From a virus (taxonomy: Duplodnaviria > Heunggongvirae > Uroviricota > Caudoviricetes): a DNA stretch of 7,699 bases. The stretch lies in the IMG/VR virus record IMGVR_UViG_2711768007_000002; one strand, 5' to 3'. This document shows positions 616 through 7,699 of the stretch, one piece after another. Under the pieces are notes generated by a model that saw only the letters and a list, made by a program, of their open reading frames with translations, did not search any database and was not told the origin of the DNA. A program made the position numbers and the translations under genes. Within the stretch, counting starts at the first letter, position 1; each line of letters begins with the position of its first letter.

Positions 616-1836
616 TTACCCTTTACGGTTTGCCCAGAATTCAGCGTTTTGTTTGTTCAGGGAAGCGATACTGGTCATGCCCATGTTTAGGCGCTGTGCA
701 TCGCCGGTGGTGGCGCGGGTGTTTCGCCCTTTGGCAACCTCAGACACGGCATTAAACGCCATGTCGACCGATTGTTTCGGTAATTTGCGGATATCCGCAT
801 CACCGACTATCTGGCGAACCAGCGTTTTGTCAGCAGAAGCCAGAACCTCGCGTTTGAACGCGGTCGGTTTCATCTTACGGCTCAGATCGATACCCGGAAC
901 GATAACTTCGGCACGCCAGGCTGAGTCACCAGTAATCGTGGTTTCCTCTTCATCGTCCTCGCCGTCACCGGTCGGATTATCGTCAGGCTTATTATCGTTA
1001 TCGCCCGTGGCATTTCTTTCCAGCTTAGCCAGCAGGGCTTTCAGTAATGTTTTGAGGTCATCATCACTGTCGCCGGTTGGATCTCCGCCCATCTCTGGTG
1101 CTTTGTCCGGTAGTGGTTGCTGCGGGGACAGGTTGATGTTGAGATTAACGCCCTGCGGCAAATCCCCCTCATCTCCTGTAACCGATGCGGGAGCCGACTC
1201 CACCAGTTCGTTCATGGTGTCGGCATCTCCTGTCTTGATGGCCGCACGCATGCGGTTCCACCAGTTTTTCTTTTGATTTGCCATTGTGTCTCTGTCTCCA
1301 ATTGCACAACGATTTCCGGCTCTGCCTTTAGGGACAAGAGCCACATGGTTTCCGGTAATATCGACCTGCTCGGCTTTACCTGGCTCGGTCTGCTCGTACT
1401 CCGCGTCATAGCCGCACGACACTTCGCGCAGGCCATCTTCGATAAGCTGAATGGCGCTTTCGTCTTTGACGATAAGGTCAGCCAGCATCAAATCAGACTG
1501 CTCACCCGTCCCGCGCCGGACATTCTGGAGGTGCCCGACAGCAAGCTCTTTCCAGTTCTCGGGATTTACCAGCCGCACATTCCCGTTTTCATCTTCAGGA
1601 TGCAGGATCGTGATGCTCATCCCTTCGAATGAGGCAAGCGTGGCCGGATGGAATACCTGCTCAGGAGAACGCGTGACGACTATTTCACCGAACTTATCGG
1701 GTTTCAGTTTTGGCAGGTCATCAGCACCATAGAGCTGCTTACCTGTTCGTCCTATCGGCACGTCTTTGCACAGCAACGAGCCGTCAGCCAGGCGGTATCG
1801 GGTTTCCCCGAGCCTGGTCTCAAAAAAGTATTTCAT
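616..1836 (-). CDS. Phage capsid assembly protein, DUF2213-like (putative scaffold or prohead-protease type), 406 aa
   Basis: Uninterrupted 406-codon ORF with ATG at 1836..1834, 3 nt after the upstream gene's TAA, and TAA at 618..616. It has a globular N-terminal half, an acidic low-complexity linker (DSDDD...DNDNKPDDNPTGDGEDDEEE) and a helical K/R-rich C-terminal region, as in scaffolding-type proteins. It sits between the Mu F-like gene and a small head gene. The family assignment is from memory of DUF2213 phage proteins and was not searched. Confidence 0.65.
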   Translation of the reverse strand: MKYFFETRLGETRYRLADGSLLCKDVPIGRTGKQLYGADDLPKLKPDKFGEIVVTRSPEQVFHPATLASFEGMSITILHPEDENGNVRLVNPENWKELAVGHLQNVRRGTGEQSDLMLADLIVKDESAIQLIEDGLREVSCGYDAEYEQTEPGKAEQVDITGNHVALVPKGRAGNRCAIGDRDTMANQKKNWWNRMRAAIKTGDADTMNELVESAPASVTGDEGDLPQGVNLNINLSPQQPLPDKAPEMGGDPTGDSDDDLKTLLKALLAKLERNATGDNDNKPDDNPTGDGEDDEEETTITGDSAWRAEVIVPGIDLSRKMKPTAFKREVLASADKTLVRQIVGDADIRKLPKQSVDMAFNAVSEVAKGRNTRATTGDAQRLNMGMTSIASLNKQNAEFWANRKG

Positions 1837-1839
1837 GGG

Positions 1840-2622
1840 TTATGCTGCCCTTTTCATTGCGAATGGAACGCGAACAAACACGATCTCTTTATAGCAGCGG
1901 CAGTTTGGCAGCTCGCCCGCGTGGCCGGTCATGCCGTCCAAAGTTGGAGGTGAATCCCAGCGGACGAATTTACCTTTCATGTGATCGTGGGAATCTCGGA
2001 CATCGCCATCATCGGCTGTACGCCAAATATAACCATCCGAGCCAATAGCTATCGCTCGGGCCATATCCAGCGCGCCCGTTGCTCTTCCCAGTTCCGTTCG
2101 GGCAATCAGATCGGCCCTAGACTTAGCAACATCGCCGGTAGATGCAATCTCTTTAGCAAACTGCTCCGCCCGACCACCGGTGACAACAGCCTCTATCGCT
2201 TTGTTCTGGATGTCGTACACCCTGTCTGCGGCCTCGAGAGGCAGAGATTTGATGTACTTGACCTGTTCGGCGATGATGGATTGCATCACCTGGCCCACAG
2301 GAGCGCTTTCCACAAGATTGCGGAGCTCGCGACTGATGTTCTTGCTGTGTTGCCGCCAAACTTTCTCGTTCTGCCGGGTTAGGTCCGCAGTAAAGTTTTC
2401 CGCGACCTTTGTCGCCCAGGGGGTGATGATTTCACTGTAACGCTCCAGCGCCGCAATAATTTCCGTGATACTGTCATTTGAACCATCGTAGCGACCATTT
2501 ACGATGTCTCCGACCGCCCTCGCTATCCTGCGTAGGCTGGTTCGATACCGGATTTCCGCCTGACGGCTCCTGCGGTTCGTCATCAGGTTCGCCGATGCCG
2601 GGCGGCGCTTCATCTTCGGCAT
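1840..2622 (-). CDS. Phage head morphogenesis protein, Mu F / SPP1 gp7 family (260 aa from the first ATG)
   Basis: The C-terminal region carries the family-typical motif ...DSHDHMKGKFVRWDSPPTLDGMTGHAGELPNCRCY (conserved H...PNCRC). The ATG at 2622 is preceded by GAGGA 8 nt upstream. The ORF overlaps the portal 3' end by 149 nt in another frame, and no in-frame start exists downstream of the portal stop, so the start is uncertain. Stop is TAA at 1842..1840. Confidence 0.75.
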   Translation of the reverse strand: MPKMKRRPASANLMTNRRSRQAEIRYRTSLRRIARAVGDIVNGRYDGSNDSITEIIAALERYSEIITPWATKVAENFTADLTRQNEKVWRQHSKNISRELRNLVESAPVGQVMQSIIAEQVKYIKSLPLEAADRVYDIQNKAIEAVVTGGRAEQFAKEIASTGDVAKSRADLIARTELGRATGALDMARAIAIGSDGYIWRTADDGDVRDSHDHMKGKFVRWDSPPTLDGMTGHAGELPNCRCYKEIVFVRVPFAMKRAA

Positions 2623-3556
2623 TCTCGATGTCCTCGTCGGTAATGGATGCCCCGATGCCGGTTACGTCAGAATTTTCTCGCAAATCAGTCATAGCGGCTT
2701 TCAGTGTCATCAGACCATCACCCAGCGCCGTACTGATTGCGTTGGTGGTGTTTAACGCCACCGTTGAGCGATCGACATCAGACATTTGCCAGAGCGGGTT
2801 AAACTCAAACGTGAAATCGTCCGGCAGCGGCTTGCCAAGTTCCGAACGATGCATGATGTCCAGTATCCGCCGCACCGGAAGACGTAAACGCCTCTCCTGC
2901 AACGAACTGATGCGATCGTAATAGTTGGCAAGGTCTGCATCACCGGTAGAAAATCCTTTCGGGGACTGTCCGAACAACCGCACCAGTGGGATACCAACAG
3001 CGCCACTAATCTGTTCTACAAACTGCGAAAGGATGTCATCCAGACCACTGAAGCTGTACTGATGGGTTTCAAACTTATCCCGCGAGTCCATGAGCGTCAT
3101 GCCTTCATTACTCTGGAACTGTCGAATCAGGTCGATATTCTTCAGCAACGCTTCATACGCAGGACCACCAAGTGCGATAAGCTCGCGTAGCTTCTCCACG
3201 CTGTAGGTACGCAAATGCGCCTTGTAGACCAGCTGCGCCGCGCCGACAGTAGCGCTGTCGAACGCGGTAAGACGATCCCAGATACGCTCTACAACCGACA
3301 TTCCCCATTCGTTCTCGGTCATCTTCTGCTGAAATGGCAACGTGACGCCATCAAAGCGAATCAGGCGACTGTGATGAATGCGCCAGGCAGGAATTCCCGT
3401 TGCTGTGGTCACCACATCGTAAAACTCAGGTTTACCCAGGTCCGGCCCCATATCTTTAATGCGGCGGGTCAGTGCCGGGTCGACCATCCAGCGGTCGAGC
3501 GGGAGAATCCCCTTAAACTTGCCCTTACCGATGGTTTCGGGTCGCAGCGGGGTCAT
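2474..3556 (-). CDS. Longest uninterrupted segment of the portal frame (360 codons from an internal ATG, two codons after the second TAG); would encode an N-terminally truncated portal if translated
   Basis: This is the ORF given in the six-frame track. It is in the same frame as the upstream portal N-terminal segments. No convincing Shine-Dalgarno precedes the ATG at 3556 (upstream minus-strand sequence ATGATTGAGGGGTAGGCACCA has only a weak GAGGGG 12 nt away). Confidence 0.45.
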   Translation of the reverse strand: MTPLRPETIGKGKFKGILPLDRWMVDPALTRRIKDMGPDLGKPEFYDVVTTATGIPAWRIHHSRLIRFDGVTLPFQQKMTENEWGMSVVERIWDRLTAFDSATVGAAQLVYKAHLRTYSVEKLRELIALGGPAYEALLKNIDLIRQFQSNEGMTLMDSRDKFETHQYSFSGLDDILSQFVEQISGAVGIPLVRLFGQSPKGFSTGDADLANYYDRISSLQERRLRLPVRRILDIMHRSELGKPLPDDFTFEFNPLWQMSDVDRSTVALNTTNAISTALGDGLMTLKAAMTDLRENSDVTGIGASITDEDIENAEDEAPPGIGEPDDEPQEPSGGNPVSNQPTQDSEGGRRHRKWSLRWFK

Positions 3557-3940
3557 TGGTGCCTACCCCTCAATCATGATGAAACCCACCGCGCCGCCGT
3601 AGAGGCGCGACCATTTCAGCACGTCATTCAGCGCATCCCAGATTTGCAACTCATCCAGTTGTGATTCGAGAATGCCACGATCTTTTGCATCAATTTCCGA
3701 AGTGATGCGAATGCCTTTGCGGGTCATATCATCCGGGATAGCATCGACTGCTTCGCCGATGATCTAGGATGAACGATAGGACCATTCCACCAGCATGCGG
3801 TTACGACTGGTGAAATTAGCCCGGTAGGTGGATGCTGAGTGCTGGTTAGGTGTCTGCATCCCTACGCGGGCAATAAAATTCTCATAACCATCAGCTGTGG
3901 CCTGCACAGTTCGCCGCAGGGCTTGTTTGTTTCGTGCCAT
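2474..3940 (-). pseudogene. Portal protein gene, 488-codon frame interrupted by two in-frame amber (TAG) codons at codons 59 and 126
   Basis: The ATG at 3940..3938 overlaps the terL TGA (minus strand reads TGATG). Translation gives MARNKQALRRTVQATADGYENFIARVGMQTPNQHSASTYRANFTSRNRMLVEWSYRSS, then TAG (plus 3764-3766), then IIGEAVDAIPDDMTRKGIRITSEIDAKDRGILESQLDELQIWDALNDVLKWSRLYGGAVGFIMIEG, then TAG (plus 3563-3565), then APMTPLRPETIGKGKF... in the same frame to TGA at 2476..2474. Position directly after terL and the acidic C-terminal tail fit a portal. Confidence 0.75.
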
Positions 3941-5343
3941 CAGGCCTGTCTCCCCAGCTGTTCCCAGATATCCAGCGATGTATCGATTGGCGCGAAGGCC
4001 ATAATGAATGCATCAGCAACGTTTGGTGACGGTATCTCGCGTTTTGCGAGGTCTTTTTTACTTTCGACCATCACACGTCCGTTACGGTCGAAATCACGAT
4101 GAGGTGTTGTCAGTTCCAGTTTCAGCTTTTCAAGCAACGGACAACGAGAATCTATGCTGATCAGCTCATCCACAGGATACTGTTCTCCGTTGTTAATGGC
4201 GTTAAACGTATTTCTGAAACGGTCAGCCACCAGCCACCATGCCTGAGCCTTAAGATTTGCGAAAAAGTCTTTGTTGGGGATGCCGTTGTACTCGTCATCT
4301 GGCTCATGCACACCAGCACCGGCGTTAAACCTCTGGTAATTCACACGTCGCGCGTATGCGTTCTCGCTCTTCCGGTCAGCGTTAATTTCAGAGAATTTAG
4401 CACCGGCAGACGCACCAACACCGATAGAGTCGTAAACAATATCTGCTTCACGCTCCAGCGCCGCCTGATAAGTACGCTGGCAGCTCTTCAGTAATTCATC
4501 TTCTTTGGCCTTCCATTCGTCGGCCCAGAAAACAACGGATCCGTGACGGTAAACGTTAGCGCACTTATCTGTACCACTGTCAGCCACGTCAAAGCCAATA
4601 CGCTTTCTTCCACTGGGTTCGAAATTTAACGTTTTGTGCGCATCCACTGCGGCTTCTATCCAAGACAGTTTGATGATTGCCGCATCATCATCAGACTCCG
4701 GAACGCCCTCATACACATGTTTAAAACCATCCGGATCACGGCGTCGCGCCGCGTCGATAACCTTAAGCATGGTGTCAGACAGAAACGGATTTTCGTCATA
4801 GTTAATTTTGCGGATGAGAGTGCCTTCGGGCGGATCAACAACGAAGTTGCGCCAGACGAAATCAGTAACAAGTCCGGGGTTGAATATGAACCAGCATTCC
4901 GAACCCTCTTTACGGATCGTTGGCTCCAGAATTTTCCACTGGTATTCCGTCAGTGCGTGGGCTTCTTCCAGCCACAACACATCGATCCCCTCCAGTGACT
5001 TAATTTCTTCGATGTTGCGCCATAATCCATAAAAAACAAATTCCGAGCCAGTAACCCGGTTAATGATTTTGTTGTTCAGAATACGGAAACGGTGCCGCAG
5101 ACCAAACCTGTCTATCTGAATTTTGAGCAGGGTATACACCGACTCTTCGATTTTATTCTGGATCTGACGGGCACAACAAAAACGCAGGGTGTATTTATTC
5201 GACAGAAATATGGCAATGCCAGCGGCATCCCATGATTTTGACGATGACCGACCACCATAAAGCACTTTGTTACGTGCCCGCATAGTCCAGAAACTACGTA
5301 AAGCCGGATTCAGCGTCGGTTTGGATGTCAGAGTAGAAGTCAT
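3940..5343 (-). CDS. terL: Terminase large subunit, Sf6/P22 gp2-like (467 aa from the ATG at 5343)
   Basis: Walker A (VLYGGRSSSKS) lies about 30 residues from the proposed start, and a Walker B-like IDVLWLEEA follows. The block SLEGIDVLWLEEAHALTEYQWKILEPTIRKEGSECWFIFNPG matches the Sf6/P22-type terminase ATPase core as I remember it. Stop is TGA at 3942..3940. The start is uncertain: the track ORF begins at a TTG at 5451, in-frame ATGs lie at 5370, 5367, 5361 and 5343, and an AGGT precedes the ATGs at 5370/5367. I chose 5343 (MTSTLTSK...) on N-terminal spacing to Walker A. Confidence 0.85.
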   Translation of the reverse strand: MTSTLTSKPTLNPALRSFWTMRARNKVLYGGRSSSKSWDAAGIAIFLSNKYTLRFCCARQIQNKIEESVYTLLKIQIDRFGLRHRFRILNNKIINRVTGSEFVFYGLWRNIEEIKSLEGIDVLWLEEAHALTEYQWKILEPTIRKEGSECWFIFNPGLVTDFVWRNFVVDPPEGTLIRKINYDENPFLSDTMLKVIDAARRRDPDGFKHVYEGVPESDDDAAIIKLSWIEAAVDAHKTLNFEPSGRKRIGFDVADSGTDKCANVYRHGSVVFWADEWKAKEDELLKSCQRTYQAALEREADIVYDSIGVGASAGAKFSEINADRKSENAYARRVNYQRFNAGAGVHEPDDEYNGIPNKDFFANLKAQAWWLVADRFRNTFNAINNGEQYPVDELISIDSRCPLLEKLKLELTTPHRDFDRNGRVMVESKKDLAKREIPSPNVADAFIMAFAPIDTSLDIWEQLGRQA

Positions 5344-6058
5344 TGAGGTCACGCTCTCCATTGCCATCATCAATACCTGCATCACGGCGAAGACGATCAG
5401 CCTCCAGAGACACCTTATCAGTGGCGGCCTTGCGGTAGGCTGTATCAGCAAATATTTTTCCTACCGTCGCAAGCGTGCCAACGATGGACTCAATACGAAC
5501 TGTATTGCGCATCATTGCTTTCTCGGCGGCGCTGATATTTTCAATCAGCATCTTCCTTTCCTGGTCCCCATTAGCATCTTCCAGCGACACCAACCACCGA
5601 CCAATATTCTCTGCAGCGACAAGGTTGTTAGCACGAAGGCGAAATAATTCGTCCTCGAGCGTCAACGCTTTAGCGTCCTCTATCACCTCATCTTTGAGCA
5701 GAAGGCGACGGGCATAACCACCGTGTTTTAATGCCTGCTGGTTACCGGGTTGGAATGGGTTAGTCGGGGGATCGGTACGCATTCCGCGTATCGGTTTCGT
5801 ATCCGGTGTAGATTCTGTTTTTAGTTGCGTACTTTTTTGTGTAAGGCCAGTAATGGCAGGCTTTCTGCTGGTACGCACTTTCCTTTTTTGCGTACCATTT
5901 TTGCAAACCTGCGTACCGCCACTGCGTGCCCAACCAAGCTTTTTGGCCCTCTTCCTGATAGCCCCTTCTGTAACGCCGTATTTCTCGCCTATATCACGGA
6001 GGCTAAGGACTCCGGCCCGGTATGCCGATTCGATGGCCTCCCAGTCCGGTTTTGCCAT
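5294..6058 (-). CDS. terS: Terminase small subunit with N-terminal helix-turn-helix (254 aa)
   Basis: The N-terminus DWEAIESAYRAGVLSLRDIGEKYGVTEGAIRKRAKKLGW is the HTH signature of one terminase small-subunit family. It is followed by a basic S/T/P/K-rich linker and a helical C-terminal domain. The gene lies immediately upstream of terL, with AGGAAG 7 nt before the ATG at 6058. Stop is TAG at 5296..5294. Its 3' end overlaps the proposed terL start by about 50 nt. Confidence 0.75.
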   Translation of the reverse strand: MAKPDWEAIESAYRAGVLSLRDIGEKYGVTEGAIRKRAKKLGWARSGGTQVCKNGTQKRKVRTSRKPAITGLTQKSTQLKTESTPDTKPIRGMRTDPPTNPFQPGNQQALKHGGYARRLLLKDEVIEDAKALTLEDELFRLRANNLVAAENIGRWLVSLEDANGDQERKMLIENISAAEKAMMRNTVRIESIVGTLATVGKIFADTAYRKAATDKVSLEADRLRRDAGIDDGNGERDLNDFYSDIQTDAESGFT

Positions 6059-6255
6059 GATTATGCTTCCTGTGATTTACTGTTATCGCTGCCTGTCACA
6101 ATAGGTTGCTTTAATTCTTCCTCATCACTCACTCCTGCGACGCTCCGTGGCAGGGCCCCCCACAGGAGTACCTTGTAAATGTAAGGTGTTTAAGCCTAAA
6201 TTAAGTCGTATCACGGTTAAATAGCAAAGAAAAATTCACAGAAGGAAAGACATTG

Positions 6256-6765
6256 ATGGAGTGGATAAATGCTTTGATGAACTATTTTGTACTTCATCCA
6301 TATCGCCTATGGGGGCTTCTTTTTATAATAGCGTTCACAAAATCCACTTTACTCATTTCGGCGATATTGCCACCAGCATCAATTATGATGGCCACTGTAA
6401 TTACAGTCAGCAAGACGACTCTTTCACCATGGGAAGCTGGAATCACGGTCATGAGTGGCGCATGGTGCGGTACTATCGTTAATTACCATCTTGGTATAAT
6501 AATTGGGCATATCCCTCAACTTGCATGTATAATATCAAGCCGTTCCAATACAATAGAACGGGTTCGCCTTCAGTTGCAAAATAACTCTGTGTCAATACTT
6601 TTCACTTCGCGCTTTATCGCCGTGCTGCGTTATATTGCTCCTTTGGTGGCAGGAATGTTGCAACTTCATCCAGTGAAAGTGTATACAGTGAGTCTGATTT
6701 CAGCTGCTAGCTGGTCAGCACTTTATGTTGGTAGTTTTAGCTTCGTGTTGCCTTTTTTTAGCTAA
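6256..6765 (+). CDS. Multipass inner-membrane protein, DedA / VTT (SNARE-associated) family-like; moron on the strand opposite the late operon (169 aa)
   Basis: The ATG at 6256 is preceded by GAAGGAAAG 6 nt upstream (the track ORF starts at the adjacent TTG at 6253). Stop is TAA at 6763-6765. The product is strongly hydrophobic with several predicted transmembrane segments and DedA-like motifs (FTKSTLLISAILPPASIMMA; SGAWCGTIVNYHLGIIIGH). The region is visibly AT-rich relative to the flanking phage genes. The family call is from motif memory, not a search. Confidence 0.6.
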   Translation: MEWINALMNYFVLHPYRLWGLLFIIAFTKSTLLISAILPPASIMMATVITVSKTTLSPWEAGITVMSGAWCGTIVNYHLGIIIGHIPQLACIISSRSNTIERVRLQLQNNSVSILFTSRFIAVLRYIAPLVAGMLQLHPVKVYTVSLISAASWSALYVGSFSFVLPFFS

Positions 6766-6853
6766 ACTGCCCATAAAAAGCTCTTGCGAATCCAGCTTCC
6801 CCCATTCCTCTGACAACAGAATCTGATTTGAAGGATAATGAGTAAAATTACCG

Positions 6854-7125
6854 CTACCCCCCAAGGCATTGGATCCTGATGTACTCCTGAAGCATTCTCA
6901 ATGCTGTCTGGTCGCTGATGATTCCGTCCCGGATACCGAGAACGTTTCGTCCAGCAACTGGAGAGAGTTCGACGGTGGCATCATTGCCCATGCCGGAGGC
7001 GCTGGAGGTTTCGGCTGAGGATGGCACAGGGCATTTTCCTTTGACGAGCACCCGACCACCATTATCAAGCTTGCGCCGAAGAGCATCATTTTCAGCTTTC
7101 GCATCAGCTAACTCCTTCGTGTATT
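6854..7125 (-). CDS. Rz: Rz i-spanin, C-terminal 89 codons only (5' end lost in the assembly gap)
   Basis: Translation YTKELADAKAENDALRRKLDNGGRVLVKGKCPV...LQEYIRIQCLGG matches the conserved YTKELADAKAENDALR block and C-terminal Cys of lambda Rz as remembered. Stop is TAG at 6856..6854. The gene follows the endolysin on the same strand and contains Rz1 in another frame. Confidence 0.8.
6898..7104 (-). CDS. Rz1: Rz1 o-spanin, outer-membrane lipoprotein nested in the +1 frame of Rz (68 aa)
   Basis: MRKLKMMLFGASLIMVVGCSS carries a signal peptide and lipobox (VVGC), followed by a proline-rich segment PQPKPPAPPAWAMMPPS, as in lambda Rz1 (MLKLKMML...VVGC...PPPPPAW). A strong AAGGAG sits 7 nt upstream of the ATG at 7104. 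Stop is TGA at 6900..6898. Confidence 0.75.
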   Translation of the reverse strand: MRKLKMMLFGASLIMVVGCSSKENALCHPQPKPPAPPAWAMMPPSNSLQLLDETFSVSGTESSATRQH

Positions 7126-7305
7126 NNNNNNNNNNNNNNNNNNNNNNNNNNNNNNNNNNNNNNNNNNNNNNNNNNNNNNNNNNNNNNNNNNNNNNNNNNN
7201 NNNNNNNNNNNNNNNNNNNNNNNNNNNNNNNNNNNNNNNNNNNNNNNNNNNNNNNNNNNNNNNNNNNNNNNNNNNNNNNNNNNNNNNNNNNNNNNNNNNN
7301 NNNNN
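7126..7305. other. Assembly gap (180 N) within the lysis cassette
   Basis: Run of exactly 180 N characters. It removes the endolysin 3' end and the Rz 5' end, and makes the two genes appear as one 245-codon ORF in the six-frame track. Confidence 0.98.
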
Positions 7306-7591
7306 CCGGTATATCGACTTTGATGTACGGGTTAATTTGTCTGGCGACAGTGGCAAGGTCTTTATTCAGGAGAGCTTTGCATTCTGCTTCGGTATACGTT
7401 TTACCAGGCATGATGTCTTTTCCGGTGTGTCCGTGACATACAGTCCATACACCAATGATATCTTTGTATAGTATGTAGCTGACACCTTCCAGACCATCGT
7501 TACCACCTGGGCCAGTGATTAACACAGATGCTATAGCAACAGCCCCGCCACCAATAGCAACTGCAACAGCCTTGCGTAATGATGGCGACAT
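7306..7591 (-). CDS. R: SAR endolysin (phage-21 R-type lysozyme), N-terminal 95 codons; 3' end lost in the assembly gap
   Basis: The N-terminus [28 protein letters not shown] is a Gly/Ala-rich signal-arrest-release segment. It is followed by [27 protein letters not shown] with Glu35, Asp44 and Thr50 at the positions of the phage-21 R catalytic triad. A GAGAGGTG Shine-Dalgarno precedes the ATG at 7591. Confidence 0.85.
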
Positions 7592-7645
7592 TATTCACCT
7601 CTCGCAGCCTTACTAGACTGGCCCCCTGAATCTCCAGACAACCAG

Positions 7646-7665
7646 TATCACTTAAATAAGTGATA
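7646..7665. repeat. Perfect 9-bp inverted repeat with 2-bp spacer, TATCACTTA-AA-TAAGTGATA; candidate dimeric DNA-binding site, function unassigned
   Basis: Read directly from the sequence. It lies 55-74 bp upstream of the endolysin start in an AT-rich non-coding segment. The outer hexamer TATCAC is the same as the outer bases of lambda-type operator half-sites. Confidence 0.5.
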
Positions 7666-7699
7666 GTCTTAATACTAGTTTTTAGACTAGTCATTGGAG

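Follow-up and report, generated by a model that had tools for sequence, protein, structure and literature searches.

The DNA immediately upstream of the endolysin gene, at the end of the analyzed window (here the whole 7,699-nt stretch of IMG/VR virus record IMGVR_UViG_2711768007_000002), almost certainly reflects an IS2 element inserted in the pinholin gene of a phage-21-type lysis cassette, and such an insertion explains positions 7614-7699. In the proposed sequence of events, IS2 (IS3 family, 1331 bp) would have entered the pinholin gene of a lambdoid cassette at codon 65 of 71 and duplicated the 5-bp target GTAAG. The left end of the element, with its left inverted repeat (IRL), would then face the endolysin gene, and the transposase genes would lie antisense to the lysis genes.

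An earlier note on this DNA had reported that the 108 nt upstream of the endolysin start (7592-7699) contain no holin gene, and had suggested an insertion or module junction between holin and endolysin, or else a regulatory region. The insertion is borne out, since the segment carries the left end of IS2; it lies, however, inside the holin gene (codon 65 of 71) and not between the two genes. Nor is the holin missing, as it resumes 1245 bp past the window edge in loci with the identical junction. The regulatory features found in the segment belong to IS2, according to the assignments published in PMC3299598, and not to a module junction or a regulatory region of the phage.

Identification of the left end of IS2

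Positions 7614-7699 (plus strand) correspond to IS2 nt 1-86, the left end of the element, and are identical to the annotated IS2A copy of Escherichia coli K-12 MG1655 (NC_000913.3, 381260-382590) at 85 of 86 positions. The alignment begins at the exact first annotated base of IS2A, and the single mismatch is a G for A at IS2 nt 32. Of 5,426 E. coli genomes, 4,678 contain this 86-mer, at 20,770 places in total, and its presence at more than 20,000 places on both chromosomes and plasmids is the signature of a mobile repeat. At the element boundary stands the left inverted repeat, TAGACTGG...CACTTAA, 42 bp in length with one mismatch. The transposase genes of IS2 read rightward from here past the window edge, antisense to the lysis genes.

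Further properties expected of IS2 were observed outside the window, in three loci that carry the identical IRL junction: L008 and L009, which are IMG/VR contigs, and L011, which lies in a complete chromosome (CP151357.1, 4.89 Mb). In each of them the element is complete, at about 1331 bp, ends in a right inverted repeat of 41 bp, and is flanked by a 5-bp direct target-site duplication, GTAAG. In L011, orfA and orfB occupy overlapping frames and encode an HTH repressor and a DDE/rve protein, respectively. The orfA product matches the NCBIfam model 'IS2 repressor TnpA' with 276 bits (cut-off 229) and the orfB product matches 'IS2 transposase TnpB' with 728 bits (cut-off 597), while the Pfam domains found in these ORFs are HTH_Tnp_1, rve, and rve_3.

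The IS2 copies at the identical junction resemble IS2A of MG1655 in their length of 1331 bp, in the orfA/orfB layout, in the 5-bp duplication (ATTAC in the case of IS2A), and in the sequences of the OrfA docking site and the P_IRL promoter. Over 1340 nt, the whole element of L009 and IS2A share 99.55% identity. The copy in the window, of which the first 86 nt are visible, differs from IS2A in one base and in its insertion site.

Junction within the pinholin gene

On the minus strand, 7591-7613 is the 23-nt 3' terminus of a phage-21-type (class II) pinholin gene, which reads, after the interrupted R65 codon, GT AAG GCT GCG AGA GGT GAA TAA. The holin genes of E. coli VL40, whose 71-aa holin is intact, and of phage 434 end in exactly this tail. 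The earlier note had started from the premise that pinholin and SAR endolysin genes overlap in such cassettes; this is correct and is seen in both VL40 and phage 434, where, as in the remnant in the window, the holin stop codon and the endolysin ATG share one A (TAATG). Inside the remnant lies the endolysin ribosome-binding site GAGGT (7597-7601), at the position annotated in phage 434. One copy of the target-site duplication occupies 7609-7613, reading CTTAC on the plus strand and GTAAG in the lysis sense. Of the 108 nt, the 22 next to the ATG (7592-7613) are not foreign, being the conserved end of the holin coding sequence. These last 22-23 nt (six codons and the stop) are the only recognizable holin coding sequence in 7592-7699, and inspection of ORFs confirmed that no holin-like ORF lies within this segment upstream of the endolysin start.

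A homology search was carried out with window positions 7310-7699 against 50,697 phage records and 5,426 complete E. coli genomes. The endolysin region is matched by thousands of E. coli records and by more than 100 from phages, with matches reaching no further than position 7613; the endolysin of E. coli VL40, for instance, is 99.7% identical to that of the window. The homology of the cassette ends at exactly 7613, 22 nt upstream of the ATG, within holin codon CGT-65. A comparison of the segment with phages, which the earlier note had proposed, is included in this search, and none of the 125 matching phage records goes beyond the last 22-24 nt upstream of the ATG. Since none of them extends past the holin tail, the segment is not conserved as native intergenic DNA in related phages. 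The same holin/IS2 junction was absent from the 5,426 complete E. coli genomes and the 50,697 phage records.

The sole ORF noted previously in this segment (7500-7694, minus strand, 64 aa, rich in Cys and Trp) does exist. It has no Pfam match, and because it crosses the junction between IS2 and its target and enters the endolysin start in another frame, it is spurious; we rejected it as a gene, as it is a junction-spanning chimera without family match.

Loci carrying the identical junction

L008 and L009 were found by an exact-pattern scan of IMG/VR, and L011 by an exact-protein look-up of the DedA protein encoded in the window. L011 is 100% identical to window positions 2253-7125 and 7306-7699. 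Exact-pattern scans of the GTDB species-representative genomes found neither the pattern of the holin/right-end junction nor that of the IRL junction, which places the source genome outside that collection. The far side of IS2 (the rest of the element, the second GTAAG, and the holin body) is known from the identical-junction loci only, as the window ends inside IS2. This stop 86 nt into the element most likely reflects a short-read assembly break at a multicopy IS.

In all three loci the order is the holin body ending in ...GATAAGC-GTAAG, the 1331-bp IS2 (5589-6919 in L011), a second GTAAG, GCTGCGAGAGGTGAATAATG, and the endolysin gene, with GTAAG directly bordering both ends of IS2. A GTAAG duplication around a full IS2 indicates simple transposition, with the 5-bp duplication typical of this element.

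In L009 and L011, the interrupted holin gene reads into IS2 as a 94-aa ORF, composed of holin residues 1-66 followed by WICPYISRHLLSLNPLQARCRRYSRGER. This ORF matches PF04971 ('Bacteriophage P21 holin S') with an E-value of 1.7e-34 over residues 5-66, covering profile positions 1-62 of 64. The native holin tail and the gene overlap are lost from it: in place of residues 67-71 (AARGE) it carries 28 that IS2 encodes, and the TAATG overlap persists solely on the 23-nt remnant, detached from the ORF. Public records contain exactly this fusion protein under the name 'lysis protein S / class II holin family protein [Shigella sonnei]', in 234 contigs of up to 5.04 Mb. In L008 (at 4690-4715), the holin gene has five A instead of six after ATGG, giving a -1 frameshift right behind the start codon, which may be either real decay or a homopolymer sequencing error.

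Features and composition of the IS2 left end

Published IS2 positions were mapped onto the window with IS2 nt 1 at 7614. The IRL, for which footprinting and genetics gave a length of 42 bp (Lewis et al. 2012, PMC3299598), occupies 7614-7655 on the plus strand (TAGACTGGCCCCCTGAATCTCCAGACAACCAGTATCACTTAA) and comprises, in the layout of that study, the cleavage domain and the binding domain of the OrfAB transposase. The earlier note had described a 20-bp palindrome at 7646-7665 (TATCACTTAAATAAGTGATA). It is present, but only as a near-perfect one, TATCACTTA-AA-TAAGTGATA, with 9-bp arms and a non-symmetric AA centre. Its left arm is the inner end of the IRL; this arm, TATCACTTAA, is the conserved inner end that is common to the right inverted repeat. 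The centre and right arm of the palindrome hold the docking site of the OrfA/InsA repressor, TAAATAA in TTAAATAAGT (7652-7661, IS2 nt 39-48), which was located by footprinting to residues 39-48 of IS2 (PMC3299598).

The right arm also overlaps the extended -10 promoter P_IRL (TGATAGTCT, 7661-7669, plus strand), a weak, native promoter that drives orfA/orfAB and begins with the TGAT at bp 48-51 (PMC3299598). Both TAAATAA and the promoter sequence are thus present beside or inside the IRL, presumably with the functions established in that study. Two ACTAGT hexamers follow in the AT-rich leader of orfA, at 7674-7691 (plus strand; IS2 nt 61-66 and 73-78), and the orfA Shine-Dalgarno sequence GGAG occupies 7696-7699 on the same strand, with 5 nt separating the window edge from the orfA ATG. 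According to the alignment with MG1655 IS2A, the ATG of orfA (insC1) is at IS2 nt 92, i.e. 91 nt after the start of the element.

The compositional peculiarities that had drawn attention to the segment were all recovered. Its GC content is 40.7% over 7592-7699 and 30% over 7640-7699, compared with 50.8% in the whole window. CTAG occurs three times, starting at 7613, 7675, and 7687, and ACTAGT starts at 7674 and 7686, the two copies being 6 nt apart and the only ones in the window. Calculation of the observed/expected ratio, as had been proposed, confirmed that CTAG is rare in the window as a whole (6 occurrences against about 29 expected from base composition, a ratio of about 0.2). Because the tetramer is so strongly under-represented, three copies within 108 nt are unlikely to be a chance result (P is about 1e-5, given the background density of the window). 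The CTAG at 7613 is a product of the junction, formed by the C of the target and the TAG of the IS2 tip, and those at 7675 and 7687 are the only CTAGs in the entire 1331-bp element. It is IS2 that supplies the palindrome, the CTAG sites, and the AT-richness, as its own features for transposase binding, repressor binding, and promoter function.

No specific function of the ACTAGT pair is documented in PMC3299598. By prediction, the two sites can pair as a 7-bp RNA hairpin. A functional hairpin was considered but not adopted: the first hexamer (nt 61-66) lies 5-10 nt 3' of the P_IRL -10 element (nt 51-56), which presumably places it at about the transcription start (a position that we estimated ourselves), and an IS2-like relative in E. 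coli RM10740 has one ACTAGT only.

We also predicted the RNA fold of IS2 nt 1-112 (L011 5589-5700, corresponding to window positions 7614-7699 plus 26 nt) as it would form in transcripts entering from outside. The predicted structure has hairpins at the palindrome and at the two ACTAGT sites (z = -2.7), and the GGAG of orfA (nt 83-86) pairs in it with a CUCC (nt 19-22) inside the IRL. Such a fold, if formed, could shield orfA against read-through translation.

Lysis region and neighbouring genes

The window contains a lambdoid late region on the minus strand, which could be read from the SAR endolysin gene onwards. The endolysin gene is followed by Rz/Rz1, a DedA-family gene on the opposite strand, and then, again on the minus strand, the genes for the small and large terminase subunits, the portal, a Mu-F-like head protein, and a scaffold/protease. 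The 5' part of the endolysin gene is visible at 7306-7591 (minus strand, ATG at 7591-7589), and the remainder is concealed by a run of N at 7126-7305. In L011, the product has 165 aa and a profile search found PF00959 (Phage_lysozyme) at residues 34-156 (E-value of 1e-43). Together with this lysozyme domain, a weakly hydrophobic, Gly/Ala-rich N-terminal segment identifies the protein, at the level of sequence, as a signal-anchor-release endolysin, and its homologue in phage 434 is annotated 'SAR endolysin'.

The run of 180 N replaces 407 nt of L011 (4874-5280), a locus that is otherwise 100% identical; the mask or gap is, therefore, not length-preserving. It also gives rise to an artefactual ORF of 245 aa (6854-7591, minus strand), in which Rz is joined to the SAR endolysin of 165 aa. 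The gene of the DedA/VTT-domain membrane protein (170 aa, 6253-6765, plus strand) has the spanin genes on one side and the small terminase gene on the other, in the manner of a moron, and exactly this protein is very widespread, occurring in 5113 indexed blocks of the sequence collection.

Compared with cassettes of the phage 21/434/DLP12 type, which consist of the pinholin S21 or EssD, the SAR endolysin R21 or RrrD, and the spanins Rz/Rz1, the endolysin, Rz, and Rz1 genes here are collinear and >93-99% identical, and the holin tail keeps both the TAATG overlap and the endolysin ribosome-binding site. The difference is that the holin gene is split at codon 65, with its body 1.33 kb away from the endolysin gene.

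Several effects on the cassette would follow from this arrangement. The fusion holin should retain residues 1-66 with both transmembrane segments, lacking AARGE and gaining a basic, IS2-encoded tail of 28 residues. The translational overlap of S and R would be lost, with the endolysin retaining its own ribosome-binding site, and the distance of the endolysin and spanin genes from the late promoter would grow by 1.33 kb. The outward -35 element that has been published for IS2 sits in its right end (PMC3299598), and this end faces the holin, not the endolysin. In simple scans of the lysis-sense strand across IS2, neither a sigma-70 consensus promoter reading out of the IRL nor an intrinsic terminator was found.

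Other insertions in similar cassettes

Four E. coli records matched the query with at least 80% coverage, and all of them are other IS insertions. E. coli ET490 has an IS2 or IS2-like IS3-family insertion upstream of essD, and E. coli 2018-01-1CC has one inside rrrD; these are separate sites and independent events. In E. coli RM10740 (L002, 1700-3080), an IS2-like IS3-family element lies in the holin tail, within about 10 nt of the present site. This element is a distinct relative whose ends diverge from those of IS2, and it also represents an independent event. It is flanked by a direct duplication of 14-15 bp, CTGCGAGAGGTGAA(T), and not by the usual 5 bp; the long duplication leaves a nearly full-length holin gene and the endolysin ribosome-binding site intact. 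An orientation bias of IS2 in lysis cassettes was also considered and rejected as a search artefact, because the query could join same-orientation pieces only. A literature search on IS2, holin, and prophage yielded nothing relevant.

Prophage decay and its Shigella context

In comparison with an intact 488-aa homologue in locus L018, the portal gene (2474-3940, minus strand) is interrupted by two in-frame stop codons, W59* and Q127*, which makes the prophage defective irrespective of the insertion in its holin gene. L011 (~7130-8513) and L009 (~1803-3252) contain an IS110-family element, whose transposase is of the RNA-guided type, at about 10 bp upstream of the start codon of the holin. L008 shares the IS2 junction but lacks this element; the IS2 and IS110-family insertions are, therefore, separate events. 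Many other IS surround the junction in L009 and L011, namely the IS110-family element and further IS3-family elements, the latter of which we take to be IS600/IS911-like. In addition, related prophage copies in other complete genomes (L010, L013, L014, and L016) have an IS3-family element inside the large terminase gene (at ~1104-2332 in each), and their lysis genes are replaced by other IS. The same prophage backbone is a repeated target of IS.

Five IS have expanded in every Shigella species, and IS2 is among them (Hawkey et al. 2020, PMC7373316). The present locus agrees with the IS-mediated degradation of Shigella genomes described in that study, both in the expansion of IS2 and in being packed with IS; the study does not discuss the insertion described here, and the word 'prophage' is absent from its main text. 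The IS2 and IS110-family insertions and the portal stops amount to IS-driven decay of a defective prophage, as is typical of Shigella. Judging by the database names of the fusion protein and by the IS content, S. sonnei is the probable source of the window.

Alternative explanations

Placed directly upstream of the endolysin gene, the palindrome and the AT-richness do look like a promoter or operator, and the segment might accordingly be read as a native module junction or regulatory region, with the palindrome as a phage operator and the holin elsewhere or absent. This has next to no probability in our view. The 85/86 identity with the IS2 terminus and the more than 20,000 unrelated places of the segment in E. 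coli speak against it, as does its absence beside the endolysin gene in all 125 matching phage records; moreover, the holin body lies across the IS together with a target duplication, and the palindrome and promoter have been experimentally assigned to OrfA and P_IRL of IS2 (PMC3299598). On this sequence evidence (IS2 identity, copy number, and the identical-junction loci), we count a native origin as already refuted. A chimeric contig end, in which the assembly joined IS2 reads to the lysis cassette, would be an obvious suspicion for a window that ends in a multicopy repeat, where short-read assemblers often give ragged or chimeric ends, and that also contains a masked or scaffolded stretch of 180 N. 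We regard such an artefact as extremely improbable, given that the identical junction is found in a complete 4.89-Mb chromosome matching the window at 100%, that two independent IMG/VR contigs share it with a proper 5-bp target duplication, and that the fusion ORF is on record in 234 contigs.

A different question is whether the insertion, once made, was retained in Shigella sonnei as a selected remodelling that tamed or repurposed the cassette, and not through neutral decay. The pinholin would then have a remodelled, more basic C-terminal tail, and the endolysin and spanins would be uncoupled from holin translation. L011 has undamaged ORFs for the endolysin, Rz, and Rz1, and the ribosome-binding site of the endolysin gene is kept; the holin::IS2 fusion retains residues 1-66 and stays open in L009 and L011; and a different IS2-like element is found in the same holin tail in E. 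coli RM10740. The insertion is also widespread in one species, but a wide spread within the clonal S. sonnei is expected from inheritance alone, and general decay of the prophage (two portal nonsense codons, the IS110-family element, and the L008 holin frameshift) argues in the opposite direction. Selection thus appears highly unlikely to us, and an IS2 insertion into the pinholin gene of a decaying prophage is the reading that we adopt.

Both IS2 and the phage-21-type cassette are textbook subjects and the insertion is already annotated, and in this respect nothing is novel. The 'missing holin' is an annotation and assembly pitfall, in which a multicopy IS ends the contig and conceals the remaining gene. 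A terminal AT-rich, CTAG-bearing palindrome of this kind should be recognized as an IS2 end, which avoids misreading contig ends as new regulatory regions or holin-less cassettes. Of little importance beyond correct annotation, the insertion described here provides one further example of IS-driven prophage inactivation in Shigella-type genomes.
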